A stretch of DNA of 64,000 nt from Perna viridis (lineage: Eukaryota), in assembly GCA_037379345.1 (NCBI GenBank), contig CM074515.1, forward strand, positions 21,514,001-21,578,000, read 5' to 3'. The notes under the pieces are model-generated. The model searched no databases. It was given only the letters and a program-made list of their open reading frames with translations, and was not told the origin of the DNA. The stretch's first letter is position 1; each line of letters begins with the position of its first letter. The translations under genes were made by a program, and so were the position numbers. Positions 18,534 through 60,695 of this stretch are shown here, one piece after another.

Positions 18534-18710
18534 CCACAGTAATAGGCATGTAGATTCCTTTGTAAACTGTCCATGTATCATCATTCAGTTGCCAAGCCAC
18601 AGTAATGGGCTTGTTGATTCCTTCTGTCTGTCTGTGTATCATCATTCAGTTGCTCAGCTACAGTAATGAGCATTCTGCCTGTCTGTCTGTCTGTCTGTCA
18701 TCATTGAGGT
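18534..18710. repeat. ~62-bp degenerate tandem repeat x2.5 ending in (CTGT)n
   Basis: acagtaat.ggc..gattcc..tgtatcatcattcagttgc recurs. Confidence 0.75.
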
Positions 18711-19139
18711 TTTATGTAGATTTGTATTGCAGATTATTTATACAAAAATTGGTTCAGATCATCATAAAACTTGGTACTGAAGTAAATAATATGAACTTTT
18801 TCAAATTATACTAACCTACTTGTGTTTTTGACTCATTTCGAAAATTTTGCTATCCCCCTTTTTTCACCATTATGTGTGGGGTATCTATCACTTGATGTTC
18901 CTTTAATGCCCTACTTTTATATAGAAACTGTTGATGTTAGATGAATGTTGCTATTCTCATCTGGATTTTGCCCTGGCTAAAATATCTGTAAATTAAAGAT
19001 GCATGGAAGGATTACATTACTCCTGTAAAGGGCTATTATATAGATTTGTATGAATATCAATATGTATTACAGATGAAAAGATGGTAAACACAGTTCAGCC
19101 ACTATTCTATCTCAATAATATGGATGGAAAATTAGAACG

Positions 19140-19187
19140 ATGACAAGCCTAGGGGGACTTCCACGTTACTATAATGGATTTCCTAAT
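19140..19187 (+). CDS. PHLDB1: Probable first coding exon of the PHLDB1-like gene (MTSLGGLPRYYNGFPN); whole exon probably 19073-19187
   Basis: Acceptor ttacAG ends at 19072 and a strong donor AAT|gtaagt starts at 19188. The donor is phase 0, matching the acceptor at 28392, and there is an in-frame stop upstream of the ATG. It gives an N-terminal leader of plausible length. There is no homology support, and the ATG at 28395 is an alternative start. Confidence 0.5.
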
Positions 19188-19192
19188 GTAAG

Positions 19193-19288
19193 TACATGTG
19201 CATTGTATATAGTAGAGTTTTGTCTACATGTGCATTGTATATAGTAGAGTTTTGTGTACATGTGCATTGTATCTAGTACAGTTTTGTC
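19193..19288. repeat. 32-bp tandem repeat x3
   Basis: tacatgtgcattgtatatagtagagttttgtc at 19193, 19225 and 19257. Confidence 0.95.
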
Positions 19289-19724
19289 GGTAAGTAAATG
19301 CATGATTTGATGTACTTCAACAACAAATATTGTTGTAACTCCTTAGTAAAAGCTATATTTTATTTGGTACATTTTCATTCACTAAAGGCAAAAAAAATAT
19401 AGGTAGGCTTGAGTTCTTGTTCATGACCACATATGTACCAAAGTATTGCATTTTTATTATCACCCTTTTTTTATTACAAAATATAAGCATTTTTTCAGTC
19501 TATCTGGTTTGATAAATGGGTCAATAGATGGATAAAAAACCATAGCAATTATTGGTATTTTAAGAACATACTAAGAGCAATTTACATACACATGATTTTT
19601 TTTCTTCAGAAAAATAAAATTATCTTCCCTCCTAATTGCAGGGTATCATTATCTCATGGACAGTTTCACCCTTTTCTTTTAATTTTTCCCTTGATTATCT
19701 TTCTCATGCAGACACCTCTTTCTT

Positions 19725-20193
19725 GGTACCAGTATCGCATTGCATATTACTGAGCAGGTTTATGTCAAAACATGGATGCTATAAAAATATAGTGCATTTT
19801 CTTTTTGCCCCTCTACAAACTAATGTTATGTCAAAAGATATGTACAATGACATATAAAATAGAGCAAACATCACACTATAAGATGACAAACTTTTTTAAA
19901 AGAAAATCTAACGTAATGACATAAAAATGTTCATCTGAAAAGGTTGGTTTGATGAGTGCAAAACAAAAGTGAAAGTAGAGAAAATGGCTATTTATAGTTC
20001 AAGACTACTTTTCTGTCCGATCTTTGTGGACTCACCCTATTTTCTTTGCGGGAAATTATTTTTTCACATGTCCTTAGAAATGCTGCATTAGTGAAAGTTT
20101 TATTGAATCAATTTACATATTTTTTTTTAAAAATCCTTAAAATATGCACTTCACTTTAGAAGTCTATGGGAAAATTAATATGATACTGAGACC
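19725..20193. mobile_element. Solo copy of the 468-bp TIR module (more diverged copy)
   Basis: Same sequence family and same GGTACC...GAGACC termini, with its own 4-bp TSD TCTT (19721-19724 and 20194-20197). Confidence 0.9.
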
Positions 20194-22511: not shown

Positions 22512-25004
22512 TCCTATCAGGATATCTCTGGATACAAAGATTATCTCCCCTCCCAGTGGCTTAGGTCATTTTCTCATAGACATCCTTGTCTTTTGATGCC
22601 TACCTTGATTATTATTCCCAGACAGTTCTCTCCTATCAGGATATATCAGTTTGTACAAGATAGATCATTATAAAGGGAGATAAGTGTTATCAATGGACTT
22701 GTTTATTATGATAGATTCTTATTTTATTGTCAAAAAAGCTCAAAATCTGTGTGAAAACATTTCACTGTGTTAATTTAAGAAAGTGGATTGGAAACTTTAC
22801 AAACTTAACTGAATGTTAACTTTTTGCTCGTTACTTACTTTAAATACTTCAAAATTTGTGATATGTTGGTAAGAAATTGGTTTTTCTACAAAAACTGTCA
22901 TCACATCCTAAGTTTAAAAATTTTTTTCTGCATTATATGAATTACAGGCTAAATTTTAGGCATTACATCCTGGTAAAATCCAAAACACACCCCAAATGAC
23001 TGACTTAAGAAATTATTGTTTTCATTGTTTACCCTGAGATATGGGACACAAAACAAAGTGAGATGTGGACTTGCCCTCAGCTTTATTTTTAGAATCTCTG
23101 AAACTTTTTCAGATTAAAATATGTTAAAGAAATCTTTTTGGTCCAAAATAAAAATACAAAATGTAAGGCACACTTCTTCAACAGAAATAAAAAGCTTCAA
23201 GGAGTGCAGCATGGTACGACTGTAGTAATCAAGCTCTGAACAGTTGGGGACCCAATATTAGTTTTCGATTTTTTGGACTGTGGTCCTTCATAACTCAAAA
23301 AACACCAAGTAATATCTGAAATCAGATTGATAAACACAGGCAGGATATTTTCATTAGGAATCCAATTGAAAAAAGTTTTTGAAAGCAGACTTTTTAGTGT
23401 ATTCCCTTTGAACTTTAAAACAATCCATAAGGCATCAAATTTGATAATTTGTTTACCAGAATTAATATGGAACAAAATAAATAGAAAAACAAAAATCAAA
23501 AGAAAAATAAACATTCTACATGGGTTTCAATACAACACCTATTTTAACCCTTTTTGGCGCCTTATTCTAAAACGATGGGGGCCACAAACTCCAAATTATA
23601 TCGTAACCTGCCGATATTGGCAAGTAAAATCGTTTAAAAATTCGTAACAGTTTTGTCTACCACAACAAAAGCTATCACACAAAGACCAAGTGACTATTGA
23701 CTACAAGGAAACCAAGAGCACCATACCAATAAACAGCTGCAATTTTTTTGCAGTGGTATAAATATGTGTATTTAAAAGATTGCATTATCAACAAAAAAAG
23801 TTGAGAATAAGTTTTACTCTGTAAAAATGAATAGACACTACTGTGACATCACAATTTTCATGTGAAAATATTTTAATTTAATTGAAAATGAGGTAGACTC
23901 TTGGTAGTTTTAAAATGCACAATTAAGTTACCTCCACATGCAAGTATGAAAAAGAGACTTCACATGTATCTTTTAAACCTACAAAGAAGCAAATGTTCTG
24001 AAAAATTTCTCCTTGATAAAAGCATGTGGAGATATATAAATCTGCAACTTGCAGTACTGATTCAAATGTCTTTTAAAAAAAAATGTTTTAACTTCTAAAG
24101 AATTTCAATGTAAGAGTGCATGCTAGATTTTATGTCATAATAATCATATCATTGAATGTAAAATTGGATTAATTCCCAGGTATAAAAGTGGGTGTACTTG
24201 AAATTACATCTTCATTTTTCAGATTTAATTTTTGTTCTTCTTCACATTTTAAGGCTTATATCACTTAGCTTGAGTTACTGCAAATTTTGAAATAATCAAT
24301 TTTGGATTTTTATATGAGTGTACAGAGAATTTATCTTGATATGGTAAAAATTGAAATGGCATTTTGGTGAAAATTAACAAACTAGCGATGATTTTCTCAT
24401 TTACAGTAAGTAACAAATTTTCTGCTGTTATATATTTTACATGGAGAGGTTGTGAAACCATTAAATTTTTTATACTCCAACCCAGTTATGTTTTATGATT
24501 ACACCCTCTCCCCACAAAGTTCAGGGAGTGTGTATGATCAATCACCCTGTCTGTCTGTCTGTACATCTATTTGTCCATGACTCTCATAAGTACAACTCCG
24601 CCAGCACTCCACAGTTTAGTTTAGTTTCACACTTTTGGCCAGGGATAAAAAATGACATAAATGGAAACCGGTGGTTGTTATAGTGATTAAAAATGAAGAA
24701 TTTATTGTTGATAAAACATTTTCTGAAAAAGGGGACTTTTAAAAGTATTTTGCAATGTTTTATATATTTTCAATGTTGAAGGGGCTTTTTTTCAATGACA
24801 GTTTGACTTCATTGTGAAAGTGAAAATAAGTCAATTTTTTACCATGTTAAATTTAATAAGTGGATTACAGAGTGAAATAGCTCAAAATCTAACCCGCGAT
24901 GCCCATATGAGGAAGGGGTTTTCGAAGGAAAAAGTTTCAGGGGATGAAATAAAAATTTAAGATATTTTGTGGATAATCTGATATTTTTAAACCTGATTTT
25001 ATTC

Positions 25005-25277
25005 GGCATTCCAATGGGAACAAATTGTGCTCCTTTACTTGCTGACCTATTCCTTCACTCTTATGAGGCTGACTTCATAGCTGATCTGATCAGAAAGAAA
25101 GATGACGTATTATCTTTAAACAATCCTAATTTTGGGTATTCGATACATCGCATCTACCCAAAAGAACTTGAGATAAAGGATACTATGGACACTGTGAAGT
25201 CAGCCTCATATCTTGACCTACACTTAGAAATCAATGGTAAAGGAAAACTATTGACCAAACTTTATGACAAACGTGAT
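25005..25277 (+). mobile_element. Penelope-like retroelement reverse transcriptase fragment (internally deleted)
   Basis: GIPMGTNCAPLLADLFLHSYEADF...DDVLSLNN...IYPKELEIKDT...SASYLDL...TKLYDKRD is a typical PLE RT core. The residues just before the catalytic DD are missing (RKK|DDVLS), and both ends are truncated. Confidence 0.85.
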
Positions 25278-26576
25278 TTACAGATGCGTGACAATTTTTT
25301 AAAGTGATAAATGTTACAAAGCATCAGATTACTAGACCAAAATTAGGCAGTTCTGCAATACTGTGGAGTGCTGGCTTAAAGGGAGCTGCCAATACCCCTA
25401 CACATTTAAAAAATTGCTTTGCATCTTAGAAACTAGTGTTTTTATGCTATGCTTTGATACAAGGGTTAAAAAAATGTAACTTATGGTATGGACCTATATT
25501 GTTGTTAGCTAAGAAGTCCCTAGCAACCAATTATGCTGATTTTTTGCAAAGTTAACAGAACAGTCATTGAACTGATTCATGTGTGAATATGACTCTTGCC
25601 ACCATAAAGAATGGAATATATTTTTAAAGGCTAAATATTTGTGCTGGTTACATGTAAAATAGTTGACCGGGCAACTTTTAAGTGCACAATAAGCAAAGGT
25701 TTAATAACCTAAGACCTAGAGTAGGCTTTTTAGTATTTAGTTTTCAACTCATTCAGATTTCTCCTTTTTCATGCGATGAGCTTCAAATGCACTATTTTAG
25801 CGTAAAACCTCTGTTAAAAGCTTACAAAACCCTAAATTTAGGGTTTATAAGTACATATGGGTTATCATTTTGTATGTTTTAAGTGGCAATTTTCATTTAA
25901 AAGATGATTATAGCAAAACAAGTGAAATTCATATCTGCACTTAGGTATAAGCAAAGTTCTCCACTAATGAAGAGGAGATAGCCTAATATAAGAATGCCTC
26001 TAAAATTGTTATCAATTGTCCATTTATGATAAATTTGGTATCATTTTACTCGTAAGAAGGTAAGCTTTCAAGAAATAACTAGAAAATTACAATATTTAAT
26101 ATTGCATTCTGCTTAATCCTGCTAAATCACTCAATGGATCCTGATGAAAGTTAAGAGATAGGTTATGAATCATTTGTAGATGGGCAGGTAGGAATTTAAT
26201 TTTTGTTGGATCCTGCAAAGGAAAATAATTCAAATCTAAATTTTAACATCTCCTGTTAAATCATCTCCTTAGGAAAATCATTAATGATACATGCCTGCAA
26301 AGGGAGATAATCAAGGTTTTTTTTTACATTTTAGTATCTAAAAAGGTCAACTCCTCCTATACCGCTGAATGGATTTTGGTGAAGCCTTAAATGAAATTTG
26401 TGCATTATATGTAGAAGTGCATGAAATAAGGTAATTTCTGTTTGATGCCTAAAAAAGGAATATACTCAGATATAAGGTTTACTGGGTATATATTCAAAGT
26501 TCAAGTGAAATGGAGGATCAGTGCAGGATCCAGAAATTCTGAAAAGAGGGGGACTGGCTCCAGTTATTTCCATATA

Positions 26577-26860: not shown

Positions 26861-27864
26861 TTTCTATATAATCTACCAAACTTTTTGAGCATTAGTGGGG
26901 AAGGTGCCTCTAATGAGGAAAATGGTTTCCTGAGCTTGATGACAGAGTATGTCTAGTAAAAGTGCAGTGGTAAGATTTTTGCACACAGACATCCTCTGTA
27001 TTCAGGGTTATCTCTAGTTGTACATAATGCCTCCTTAACAGAGAGATAAGGTCCATCATTCTGTCTTGTTATAACTGATTGATGTAACTGTCTTATTTAA
27101 AATAGACAAAAGATTTATGATGGGCAAAGAGGTCTGATGTTGCATCTTCTTAAAGATAATAATAATTAATTTAGATAGCAACCAATAGCCAGAGTTAGCT
27201 TATTTTTGTTGTGTAGGATTTGTACTTTCACTGTCATGTTTTGTCTGCACTGTTCATCAGTTAATTTGCTTTGATGTTATGATTCAATTAGAAAGTTATA
27301 ACGGAAATAGACCTATTGATGTTCTTTGTAGTTTTTAGATCAACACATTCAGTATTCAGGCTAAAGTCAGGCTAAATGCTACAATGAAATTAGAACAAAA
27401 AAGTTTCATTTTGATCCACAATCTTCAAAATCAAGGGACACAGAACTTAGTGATGAACTTCTAACAAGACAGTACATGTGATATATGTAATGAATTGCAT
27501 AAAAAAAATTGGACCTAAATGTCAATCTAGATTGTATAAAATTATATACCATAGGTTTCTGTATTTCTTTGTTTTCAATGTGATGTTACAATAAAGGAAA
27601 ACACAGACAACTTGAATATCTATAATTTTACTTTTTGACACACACTTCCTTTTAAAGTCATACATGTATATAACATGTTAACACCAGTTTAATAAACTAT
27701 TGTTATATATGAAGTTTTAAATGACAAATTCTGACACAGTAGACTTTAGCCAAGCAAATATTGAAGTTTCCAGGGACCTGTCATGGCTCAAAGGTTTGAG
27801 AGGTTCTTCCAATGTGGAACTTAAAACTTTCCTGCCTCATTAATCATGGACCTGTTTTGTACTG

Positions 27865-28410
27865 CTACATAATAATTCTATCTTGTAACAGAAAATTTCA
27901 GTGTATATAGGAGGACACCAGGGGCTTCTTTCCCCACAATACCCTGTGACCAATTAGGCTTCCACAGTCAGATAGGGCTACATGTTAATTGTAATTTGTG
28001 AATTTCAGTGTATGCTGGTTGATGTCATGGGCTTCCTTTTCTTAAGAATCCTTGCGACTAATGAGGCCTGTACAGTCAGATAGGGTTACATGACAATTAT
28101 AAGTTGTAAATTTCAGTATATGCTGGAGGATATCTGGGGCTTCCGTTTCCCTAAAATCCTTGTAACCAATGAGGCCTGTACAGTCAAATCTATTTATCTC
28201 TAGTGAGAGTTAAGGCTCAAAAGATCATAAAAGGATACATAATAGTGTTAGTTGTATATTTCAGTGTATGCAGAAAGACATCAGAGACTTCCATCAACCA
28301 TGAATCTTTGCTACCAACGAGGTCCCCTCTCCAGGAATCAGTCTACACTGTCAGACTTGACTACATAACAATTGTGTGTTTTATATTTCAGTGCATGCAG
28401 GAAGATGTCA
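27865..28410 (+). repeat. Degenerate tandem array (5 units, 107-148 bp) whose last unit is the real acceptor and 5' end of the exon at 28392
   Basis: The motif tacat...atttcAG|TRYAT....ga recurs with AG ending at 27901, 28008, 28116, 28264 and 28391. The first four units also share cttc...aat(g/t)aggc...acagtca-like downstream sequence. Confidence 0.85.
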
Positions 28411-28521
28411 GACTGAGTGATCCTGACAGTACAGTGAAGGTACATGCTGATAAACCTCACCTCGTCAGTCTGGGTAGTGGTCGGTTGTCAACAGCAGTCA
28501 CTATTATACCTCTACAAAATG
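28392..28521 (+). CDS. PHLDB1: Coding exon of a pleckstrin homology-like domain family B (PHLDB1/LL5-like) gene; start of FHA domain (CMQEDVRLSDPDSTVKVHADKPHLVSLGSGRLSTAVTIIPLQN-G)
   Basis: Acceptor tttcAG ends at 28391 and donor G|gtaaaa starts at 28522 (phase 0 in, phase 1 out; 130 nt). The peptide KPHLVSLGSGRLSTAVTIIPL matches the PHLDB1 N-terminal motif as I recall it (KPHLVSLGSGRLSTAITLLPL). Orthology to PHLDB1 versus the family ancestor is not resolved. Confidence 0.92.
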
Positions 28522-30374: not shown

Positions 30375-30527
30375 TCTTTTTTACAGAAAGATACAGTAGA
30401 ACATTTAGAGAAACATACAGCCTCCAACACCAACCATGTATTCAGTTCATGTCTTTTTTATAGAAAGAGACAGTAGAACATATAGAGAAACATACAGCCT
30501 CCAACACCAACCATATAACCAGTTCAT
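30375..30527. repeat. ~77-bp tandem duplication
   Basis: tcttttttaYagaaagaKacagtagaacatWtagagaaacatacagcctccaacaccaaccat occurs twice. Confidence 0.9.
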
Positions 30528-30607: not shown

Positions 30608-30790
30608 GGAGAACAGACATAGGGACAGTAGATGCTGAGATATTACCAGATGTCATTATTCAGGGTACAGGTGTTGAGGATGAACACTGTTACATAGACA
30701 ACATCCATGGAATTGTCACGTTCTATCCAGTGGCTAAGATGTGCTTTATTGACCAGAGATTGGTTACTGAGCCTACTAGGCTAACACAGG
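30608..30790 (+). CDS. PHLDB1: Coding exon of PHLDB1-like gene; FHA core (GRTDIGTVDAEILPDVIIQGTGVEDEHCYIDNIHGIVTFYPVAKMCFIDQRLVTEPTRLTQG)
   Basis: Polypyrimidine tract plus cctcAG ends at 30607, donor CAGG|gttggt at 30791; 183 nt, phase 1-1, in frame with both neighbouring exons. GRT.IG, EHCYI.N and PTRLTQG are PHLDB1/kinesin-3-type FHA motifs. Confidence 0.93.
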
Positions 30791-42800: not shown

Positions 42801-43654
42801 AAAAAATGTTTTAAAAATACAAGCATATTTAATTCTTTTTTTTTTTCAGATCAGTTTGTGTTCATAAAATATTTTTGCTATCAACCCTTTCAACAACTGT
42901 TTGAGTCATTTTACAGGTCTTATCAAATGTAGGTACAAGAACACAATTAATTCCCCTTGGTTTTCGTTGTATACGAATATAGTTCCAACTTTGGTAGTAG
43001 GTACCTTCCACATTTATTCATATTTTTACTGGAAACTTATTTGCTGAAGTTTTGCCTCTAATTGGTAGAAAATAGGTTAAATTTTACATGGGATTTTTTT
43101 TCATTAATCAATTCTGACTAAAAGTTGTGATTTGGTTCAGTGGAAGAAGGTTAAAATTTAGGACTTTTAACTCAGTTCATTTGTCATGTTTACCCCATCT
43201 CCAAATTAGATGTATTAATTTCAGAAAATGATGGTAAAATTTTCTACAATTTATATATAAAATCCTGTTTGTACATATCTTTAAGCCAGAGAAGTTTAAT
43301 TCAGTTTGCGCGGGTGGAATTTTTTTAATCTGCTCAAATGTGTATATTGAAATGCACTTGAAAATAAATTACGGTCTCGTGCCTGTAAGCAAATTATTTA
43401 GATACTGGTAAGGTCAAGGTCATTGTCCTATGACCCTATGCTTATGGTTTGAATGTACATATAATCAGAACATTTAGATATGTACATAAGATCTAGACAT
43501 TGCATGTATGGTCCAAATGCCTGTTTGATCGAAACCTATATATTGGAGTACTGTTGCCCTTGCTTGAATTGCCATATTAAATATTTTTTTGCTTCTGTTT
43601 TGAACGCATGAACAAATTTTCTTACTATCGGTTGAGCATTTTTTTGATATTATG

Positions 43655-44040
43655 CATATGTATGGTTTATTTTCTCATTTTGTACCATGCTTACATATGG
43701 TTAGATGTTTTCCCATTTTGATACCATGCTTACGCATGGTTTAATGTTTTCCTTTTTGATACCATGCTTACGTATGGTTAAATGTTTTCATTTTAATATC
43801 ATGCTTACGTATGGTTAAATGTTTTCCTGTTTTGATACCATGCTTACGTATGGTTTAATGTTTTCATTTTTGATACCATGCTTACGTATGGTTAAATGTT
43901 TTCCTGTTTTGATACCATGCTTACGTATGGTTTAATGTTTCCTTTTTGATACAATGCTTACATATGGTTAATTTTTTTCCCTGTTTTTATACCATGCTTA
44001 CATATGTTTTAATGCCTTCCTATTTTATTACCATTCTTGC
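43655..44040. repeat. ~38-bp minisatellite, about 10 copies, with a palindromic core
   Basis: tttgataccatgcttacgtatggttWaatgttttc repeated; the core is ACCATGC-TTAC-GYATGGT. Confidence 0.95.
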
Positions 44041-55154: not shown

Positions 55155-55277
55155 GATGTATGCTGTGTTTAGGGCGTTCTAACTACTTTAGATTTAACCA
55201 TCCACAAGAAGCCAAAAAGATCAAAGATGCCTTGCCTAACTGTAGAATATCCTGTGCTCCTATAGATTTCATACAAG
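55155..55277 (+). CDS. PHLDB1: Coding exon of PHLDB1-like gene; end of FHA domain (GCMLCLGRSNYFRFNHPQEAKKIKDALPNCRISCAPIDFIQ)
   Basis: Acceptor ctttcAG ends at 55154, donor AAG|gtaaga at 55278; 123 nt, phase 1-1. It continues LTQ-GCMLCLG..FRFNHP.EA as in PHLDB1. The preceding intron is 30791-55154 (about 24.4 kb). Confidence 0.93.
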
Positions 55278-59400: not shown

Positions 59401-60408
59401 TAAAATGAAAATTCTCCTTTTTAATTCAGGTAGGAGAAAATGATTTGAGCTGAAGACTTTAAGTAGAAGCAGATCTAAAATGACCATGACCATAAAGTTC
59501 TTCCTGATTTAGCCTAATCTTGTAAAACTCCCTTAAGGTACCTCTTTGTATTGCCTATGGAAAAGAGGATTTCTAAAATATGATCCCTATGTCAATGGAG
59601 TAGCAGACCCATAAATTTCCATCTCATTTAAAAGGTTAAATCGGGACAAGACTAGGATCATTTTTATGAAGTTGAGCATGAGAACCATTGACTTCAGGCA
59701 AAGAGAAGTAAATGATCAATTACTGGAAAGCTCATCCTTCAGTCCAATGAACAAAGGCCAACTTATCTTGTCCACTTCTCTGTCATAGCTTTCAATAATG
59801 ATCAAACCATTTTTGTCTAGTTTGCTCCTGGCTCTTGTCAGTGTGAAATATTCTTTGAAAAGAAATTGAATGAAATTGGATTGAAAGGTATCATTTAGGT
59901 ATTCATTTTGTACAAATAGGCTGAGTGGTGACTTTAACAGTAGCTCTTTTATTGAAAATTCAATCTTGGGGGTTATGTGTAGTTATAGGAAATGTGAGAA
60001 AAACTCATGTTTAGATTAATGTTTTAATAAGGGCATGTGGAATGTTGCTTATCCTTTGAGGTGTTGCAAATCTGAAATTGAAAACTTTTTAAAGATCAAA
60101 AGTCAAGATTTAGAAATAACATTTTAGCTTCTGATCTGATTTCATCCCTTTGGGAGGTAGGTATTTTGATTATTGCTGAGGACAAGTTTTTTTTAATTGT
60201 GACAATAGGTGTTAAATATCATCTGTTTTCTTTCTGTGTATGGTATGGCTGGTATGTTAATAACTTTGTGCATTTGTACGGCCATTTTAGTTAGGTTTTG
60301 AATTGAACTTAATTTGTTTGCCTTTGTACTTACATTTGCCATGCTCCACTCAGTGAAAATTACAACTTGATACTAAGAATTTTTTGGCTACTTTTGACTT
60401 GTGTTAAA

Positions 60409-60695
60409 TGTGCTCTGCCCTTTTCAGCTGGGTTAAACCAGCTTACATTTGCCCTGCTCCAATCAGAGGAAACATGCTCTGTCCTTTTCTGCTGGGCTGA
60501 ATAAGCATACATTTGCCTTGCTCCAGTCAATGGAAATATGCTCTGTCCTTTTCAGCTGGGTTAAATAAGCTAACATTTGCCCTGCTCCAGTCAGAGGAAA
60601 CATGCTCTGCCCTTTTCAGCTGGGCTGAATCAGCTTACATTTGCCCTGTTCCAATCAGAGGATATATGCTTTGACCTTTTTGGCTTACATTTGCT
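60409..60695. repeat. 64-bp minisatellite (about 4.5 copies) with alternating unit types
   Basis: acatttgcc recurs at 60445, 60509, 60573 and 60637; units alternate gggttaaa / gggctgaa. Confidence 0.9.

Follow-up and report, generated by a model that had tools for sequence, protein, structure and literature searches.

Four copies of a splice acceptor stand head to tail upstream of coding exon 2 in a gene of the mussel Perna viridis. The array that they form with the authentic acceptor is best read, with considerable confidence, as a neutral, decaying repeat of the mirage type, and it is probably ordinary. Mirages are repeats that span an exon-intron boundary; the name was coined in amphioxus, and the papers cited here describe them in Adh3, BflGb6/BflGb9, PGBD5 and troponin C (PMC3087553, PMC3902484). 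The sequence-only reading of the locus had offered three explanations: a neutral 'exon echo' that the spliceosome ignores, a poison-acceptor switch acting through NMD, and a set of uORFs. The first is the best supported of the three. Its published name is mirage; the term 'exon echo' was not found in the papers listed by the search. All positions below refer to the window, that is, the whole stretch of 64,000 nucleotides that was analyzed.

The array and its host gene

The array consists of five head-to-tail units with a core period of 107-108 bp, each made up of about 88 nt from the end of intron 1 and the first 20 nt of exon 2. Unit boundaries were set so that each unit stops 20 nt past its AG, which gives a total span of 27815-28411. 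Tandem Repeats Finder reports the array with a period of 108 and a score of 325, and the units match each other in blastn at an E value of 3.5e-35, far above chance. When a profile of the five units was searched against the 64-kb window, the self-matches had E values of 7e-30 to 9e-14 and the next match had an E value of 1.5. A dispersed repeat or transposon was rejected as the source of the unit, as neither the profile search nor blastn found an extra copy in the window. Pairwise unit identities range from 0.53 to 0.79, with units 3 and 4 forming the most similar pair and unit 1 at the bottom of the range.

Every unit carries the motif ATTTCAG followed by 20 exon-like bases, of which 13-16 match the exon start. 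The motif ends at 27901, 28008, 28116 and 28264 in the upstream copies and at 28391 in the true acceptor. This confirms all the positions that had been given for four intact upstream motifs, with the last unit of the array as the real 3' splice site. Unit 1 (27815..27921, + strand; pseudo-acceptor AG ending at 27901) is the most diverged edge copy, with identities of 0.53-0.60 to the others; its 5' half is weakly homologous, and the profile match begins at 27819. The array had previously been placed at 27865..28410; weak homology already starts near 27819, and it extends to 28411. Unit 2 (27922..28028, +; pseudo-acceptor AG ending at 28008) is the best-looking decoy, with an AG-free zone of 31 nt. 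It is followed by unit 3 (28029..28136, +; pseudo-acceptor AG ending at 28116) and by unit 4 (28137..28284, +; pseudo-acceptor AG ending at 28264), which has a 41-nt insertion holding the sole donor-like site of the array, GTGAGA at 28203. Unit 5 (28285..28411, +) has a 19-nt insertion, the authentic acceptor with its AG ending at 28391, and the first 20 bases of exon 2. Because unit 5 alone runs on into a protein-conserved exon, the authentic junction lies at the exon end of the array. A recursive splice site has an AG directly before a GT; this feature is absent, the copies reading AG followed by TG or TA.

The gene behind the array is, judged by its protein matches, a mussel (mytilid) ortholog of PHLDB/LL5. 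Over its full length, the 43-residue translation of exon 2 shares 95% identity with four named Mytilus proteins, and among the best 120 of 2502 matches it also finds oyster proteins (75-80%) and vertebrate PHLDB1. Used as tblastn queries, the named Mytilus proteins matched four coding exons, all on the + strand and with identities of 84-93%. In exon 1 the coding part (19140..19187, +) comprises an ATG and 16 codons in all, and ends at a phase-0 donor, GTAAGT at 19188; it is identical to the Mytilus N-terminus at 14 of 16 residues (87.5%, tblastn E value 2e-4), and an in-frame stop at 19116-19118 precedes its ATG. A 7-codon upstream ORF at 19120-19142, whose stop overlaps the main ATG at 19140, is a uORF candidate, unlike the ATGs of the array. 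Coding exon 2 (28392..28521, +; 130 nt, phase 0 in and phase 1 out) encodes the N-terminal FHA-like region, and coding exon 3 (30608..30790, +; 84% to Mytilus in tblastn) the core of the FHA-like domain. Coding exon 4 (55155..55277, +) is 89-91% identical to Mytilus in tblastn, and the remaining gene lies outside the window.

Exon 2 had been called the first FHA exon. It does cover the stretch just before and at the start of the FHA-like domain, but it is coding exon 2 and not the first exon. The FHA-like domain scores below the Pfam cut-off both in exon 3 (E value 0.08) and in the oyster ortholog (E value 0.0011; 19.8 of 20.7 bits), which also carries a C-terminal PH domain. In sequence matches, the N-terminal FHA-like region is similar to structure entries of KIF1/KIF13-type kinesins and afadin. 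At codon 2 of exon 2 (28395-28400) this species has Met where Mytilus has Arg, a possible downstream in-frame start, and a CAG that lies in frame 9 nt inside the exon (ending at 28400) might serve as a minor acceptor.

No spliced transcript or protein of this species was found among the best 120 of 2502 matches, nor among the three matches of a second search. The single 100% match to exon 2 among the matches listed is an unspliced ORF. A second record, identical at 97 of 100 residues, spans the end of unit 4 and unit 5 into exon 2, and its three differences are a start codon read as Met and two intronic residues. At least the part of the array that this record covers is therefore real and not produced by the assembly.

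Four structural features of mirages are found in the array: it is tandem, it spans the boundary, it has its authentic junction at the exon end, and its units are of suitable length. As in the amphioxus mirages, the splice signal is duplicated along with the boundary, and 107-108 bp falls within the reported range of 10-160 bp (PMC3087553). As described in the sections cited, the amphioxus BflGb6 mirage has three to six units of 150-160 bp, 81-100% identical, that combine the 3' end of an intron with the 5' part of an exon; its edge units are the most diverged and lie outside homogenisation, the splice signal is kept in 'many, but not all' repeats, and RT-PCR suggested no interference with splicing (PMC3087553). 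The Perna array has the same polarity and likewise has its most diverged unit at the edge. It differs in its mollusc host, in its more decayed units (53-79% versus 81-100%) and in the survival of all four copy AGs, which we counted against the neutral reading. Lancelet PGBD5 is described, in the part of the source used, as having imperfect 60- and 108-bp repeats over splice sites (PMC3902484). Whereas copy-number instability and correct splicing were shown for the amphioxus mirages, the Perna array is known from sequence alone. No report of a molluscan mirage was found in the literature searched, which is weak evidence because most subscription papers lie outside it.

Two human loci offer further comparisons, again from sections of the sources. 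In CBS 844ins68, where an intron end and exon start are duplicated, the distal site is strongly favoured and the mRNA is normal, a choice attributed to G runs between the sites (PMC2630376, PMC1802585). The same kind of junction is duplicated in Perna, although CBS 844ins68 is one recent 68-bp duplication and Perna has four old copies. In the 37-bp VNTR of F7 intron 7, duplicated donor sites that are potentially functional stay silent, which was explained by 5'-to-3' scanning (PMC1557585). As in Perna, the end unit of this minisatellite forms the real exon junction, but F7 concerns the donor side and identical copies, and the scanning rule is not transferable to acceptors, as the real site comes last here.

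Conservation and strength of the copied acceptors

The main result against the neutral reading is an apparent over-conservation of the motif. The locus was selected by a scan for its intact motif, and all conservation P values are therefore given as nominal. All seven motif columns are invariant in the four copies, compared with 33 of 92 other columns (nominal Fisher P = 0.001) or, in the half where unit 1 aligns well, 22 of 47 (P = 0.009). With six motif columns the corresponding values are 0.003 and 0.016, and with AG alone they are 0.14 and 0.23. With base-specific rates the 7-mer has P values of 0.004-0.012, TTTCAG of 0.011-0.029 and AG of 0.15-0.17; in a simulation of site-rate variation (star tree, without re-alignment) the 7-mer has values of 0.007-0.047 and AG of 0.24-0.42. 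The excess persists when any single copy is left out (motif P = 0.012-0.021). CpG decay was rejected as its source, since removing CpG-like columns barely changed the result (P ~0.007). Treated post hoc as the longest invariant run, the block has a P of 0.027-0.11 in the four copies and 0.34-0.69 in units 2-4. Excess conservation of TTTCAG within the array, as the sequence-only reading anticipated, is thus found nominally for the motif (P = 0.001-0.05) but not for AG alone, which is not significant by any method (0.13-0.42 together). The further statement that the surrounding bases drift is right on average, given the 33 of 92 invariant columns, but other blocks are invariant too: TACAT in 5/5 units and two 7-base runs across units 2-4.

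We regard the motif excess as nominal and weak, because the locus was chosen for its intact motif, because of the longest-run values and the other 7-base runs, and because the rest of the acceptor is less well kept. It is weakened further by a Mytilus-like genomic ORF, whose residues before the exon imply a working acceptor with at least two departures from ATTTCAG. We take the intact ATTTCAGT block to be, most likely, a survivor by chance that the scan singled out, aided by slow change at T positions, and short conversion tracts possibly also helped it to survive.

The acceptor context is poorer in the copies than at the true site. Units 1-4 have 9, 10, 9 and 10 pyrimidines per 19 and the true acceptor has 12; the AG-free zones are 8, 31, 11 and 11 nt, against 35 nt at the true acceptor, and another AG lies 8-11 nt upstream in three of the four copies. 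Apart from the true one, 515 AGs occur in intron 1 (9204 nt), along with 5 TTTCAG that are not part of the array; intron 3 (24364 nt) contains 18 TTTCAG. On a crude, home-made acceptor score of two features, 61, 12, 49 and 40 CAG sites in intron 1 equal or better units 1-4, respectively, and the true acceptor is itself equalled or surpassed by 5 other sites in this intron. Because so many sites in intron 1 match the decoys, the spliceosome must already ignore many such sites.

Read in phase 0, units 1-4 reach a stop after 2, 24, 28 and 12 residues, in agreement with the earlier claim that every decoy stops within 30 codons. A stop within 30 codons is found at 87% of random window positions, which gives 0.57 for all four. 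The stops are expected by chance and so say nothing on design, as evidence of which they were rejected. Joined to the exon-2 donor, the decoy AGs would give exons of 620, 513, 405 and 257 nt, compared with the normal 130 nt.

Explanations for the array

In the neutral explanation, a segment of about 108 bp, comprising the end of intron 1 and the start of exon 2, was copied in tandem more than once, with unequal crossing-over or slippage as the probable mechanism. The last copy alone has remained joined to the full exon and its donor, and the spliceosome would define the 130-nt exon and take the last AG. As for the four upstream copies, decay has brought them down to 53-79% identity, and they are carried along in the intron as passengers. 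Their use is presumably negligible, and a rare leak to a decoy would give a prematurely stopped transcript, which would be splicing noise and not regulation.

The array copied the junction and not the reverse, because the start of exon 2 is conserved in the four named Mytilus proteins and because an unspliced Mytilus-like ORF has a Gln directly before the same exon residues, which fits the same acceptor position. Exon positions +15/+16 read CA, TG, TA, CA and TG in units 1-5, a pattern that we interpret as independent decay of an ancestral CpG and that marks the copies as old; the CpG o/e of the window is 0.23. The A-T at +4/+5 is common to all copies and belongs to the Met codon of this species, where Mytilus has Arg. 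Unless Met was there ancestrally, this suggests that the duplications arose within this lineage. A tree of the five units has no supported node (bootstrap 37-59 under four models), and the order of duplication was not recovered from it.

The retained motif could also reflect selection on the copies or conversion by the true acceptor. Regulated use of at least one copy as a selected poison acceptor would add 127-490 nt and an early stop, and NMD would lower the FHA-containing isoform. The nominal excess of ATTTCAG conservation counts for this explanation, as do the AG-free zone retained by unit 2 and the Ser that the second record keeps over the unit-4 AG codon, which is compatible with a kept AG. 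Use of any of the four copies would shift the frame and place a stop 218-611 nt before the next junction, and in this the decoys resemble AS-NMD switches, with a premature stop upstream of an exon junction. Poison exons and AS-NMD switches are typically conserved across species and seen in RNA. We nevertheless consider selected poison acceptors quite unlikely here, given the non-significant AG, the longest-run values, the stops expected by chance, the close upstream AG in three copies and the lower pyrimidine content of all four. Moreover, the invariant block takes in positions -7 and +1, where acceptors are under little constraint, and the stops would fall 18-44 codons from the start codon, a distance at which NMD is often inefficient in mammals. 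Known mirages, according to the sections cited, yield no aberrant mRNA (PMC3087553, PMC3902484). There is, likewise, a small chance that an old mirage was co-opted, its TTTCAG cores being selected as weak regulated acceptors that lead to early stops and its unit number tuning PHLDB output. Passive homogenisation, in which short gene-conversion tracts from the selected true acceptor rewrite ATTTCAGT in silent copies and no function is involved, would account for a block that holds non-critical positions. Identity to unit 5 also drops with distance (0.70, 0.69, 0.65 and 0.53), and concerted evolution within mirage clusters is reported in the part of the source used (PMC3087553). However, T is found at exon +3 in all four copies and C in the true exon, so that a conversion tract must stop within 2 nt of the junction, and the tree again shows no supported node. 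Since gene conversion should be rare at the divergence of 25-45% seen here, we think this process doubtful as an explanation for the intact block.

An alternative first exon in intron 1 could make uORFs of the copy ATGs, or an in-frame alternative acceptor of unit 4, but we hold both to be highly improbable. An ATG at +4 is kept in units 2-4. Upstream of exon 2 its frame stays open for 73 codons, a stretch that runs through unit 4 (P ~0.01 for a random position); paired with a phase-2 donor, unit 4 would thus be no poison acceptor and would contribute 42 in-frame residues. In one predicted Mytilus protein a different N-terminus precedes the exon-2 equivalent, but this N-terminus has no match in the window (best upstream E value 3). 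The open frame upstream of exon 2 has no ATG before the exon, no upstream exon with a phase-2 donor for unit 4 was found in the window, and the second record differs at 2/49 intronic residues versus 0/43 exonic ones. The sequence-only reading had proposed uORFs for the case that the upstream exons are non-coding, which fails for the main isoform, as the conserved exon 1 at 19140-19187 is coding and in phase 0. With the main start at 19140 in this upstream coding exon, the copy ATGs are intronic in the main isoform and are not uORFs.

Other repeats in the window and in bivalves

Local tandem duplication is frequent in the window. Among its seven splice junctions, copies of the junction sequence were found at the exon-2 acceptor only, with 32, 29 and 29 matches out of 40, compared with at most 23 under the null; unit 1 reaches 22/40 in this ungapped score because of its 6-nt insertion. 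Degenerate echoes above random background were found at none of the six other window junctions. Arrays with a period of at least 24 cover 1870 of 64000 nt, and the probability that at least one of seven random sites falls inside one is 0.19. For three of the seven splice sites an array is no more than 100 nt away (P = 0.005, for a distance that was set post hoc).

One such array is a 32-bp repeat in three copies (19188-19295). It starts 5 nt past the exon-1 donor, and its end coincides with another perfect GTAAGT (19290), which lies 102 nt beyond that donor with an in-frame stop between the two; the exon-1 part is not duplicated. A 77-bp duplication in two copies (30375-30527) lies 80-230 nt upstream of exon 3. 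Its units start with strong acceptor-like tracts (AGs ending at 30386 and 30463) that have 16 and 15 pyrimidines per 19, at least as many as the true exon-3 acceptor, and the exon-3 frame is open for 66 codons upstream. Further intronic minisatellites were seen at 43641-44038 (38-39 bp), 60406-60680 (64 bp) and 18534-18705 (61 bp). A dispersed element of at least ~460 bp occurs in four copies, at 19725, 20323, 22044 and 51486 (72-98% identical in 300-nt blocks), and is probably a non-autonomous transposon. Two open frames resemble remnants of mobile elements, one of 212 residues (33800-33165, - strand) and one of 119 residues (24948-25304, +), the latter of which we take by eye to be reverse-transcriptase-like; neither has a Pfam match above the cut-off.

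Outside the window, the end of the exon-2 equivalent is repeated on the donor side in 4 of 6 oyster-like unspliced ORFs, one of them with four copies at a 14-residue period; the evidence for these repeats (P0006-P0009) is at the protein level, and the records may not be independent. No exon-end repeats were found in two mussel ORFs. The oyster repeats are apparently an independent mirage at the same PHLDB exon, which would point to repeated duplication of junctions in bivalves, including at this single exon. Duplications that span a junction could be a common feature of bivalves and be enriched at exon borders.

If the copies are regulated NMD acceptors after all, a neutral duplication would have been turned into dosage control, and a co-opted mirage would be the first functional one found in the literature searched. 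As the neutral, decaying repeat that we favour, the Perna array extends mirage-type repeats to bivalves. Copies of a junction can mislead both gene prediction and read mapping, and the array offers a natural series for studying how, in an invertebrate, the last of five similar acceptors comes to be chosen by the spliceosome.
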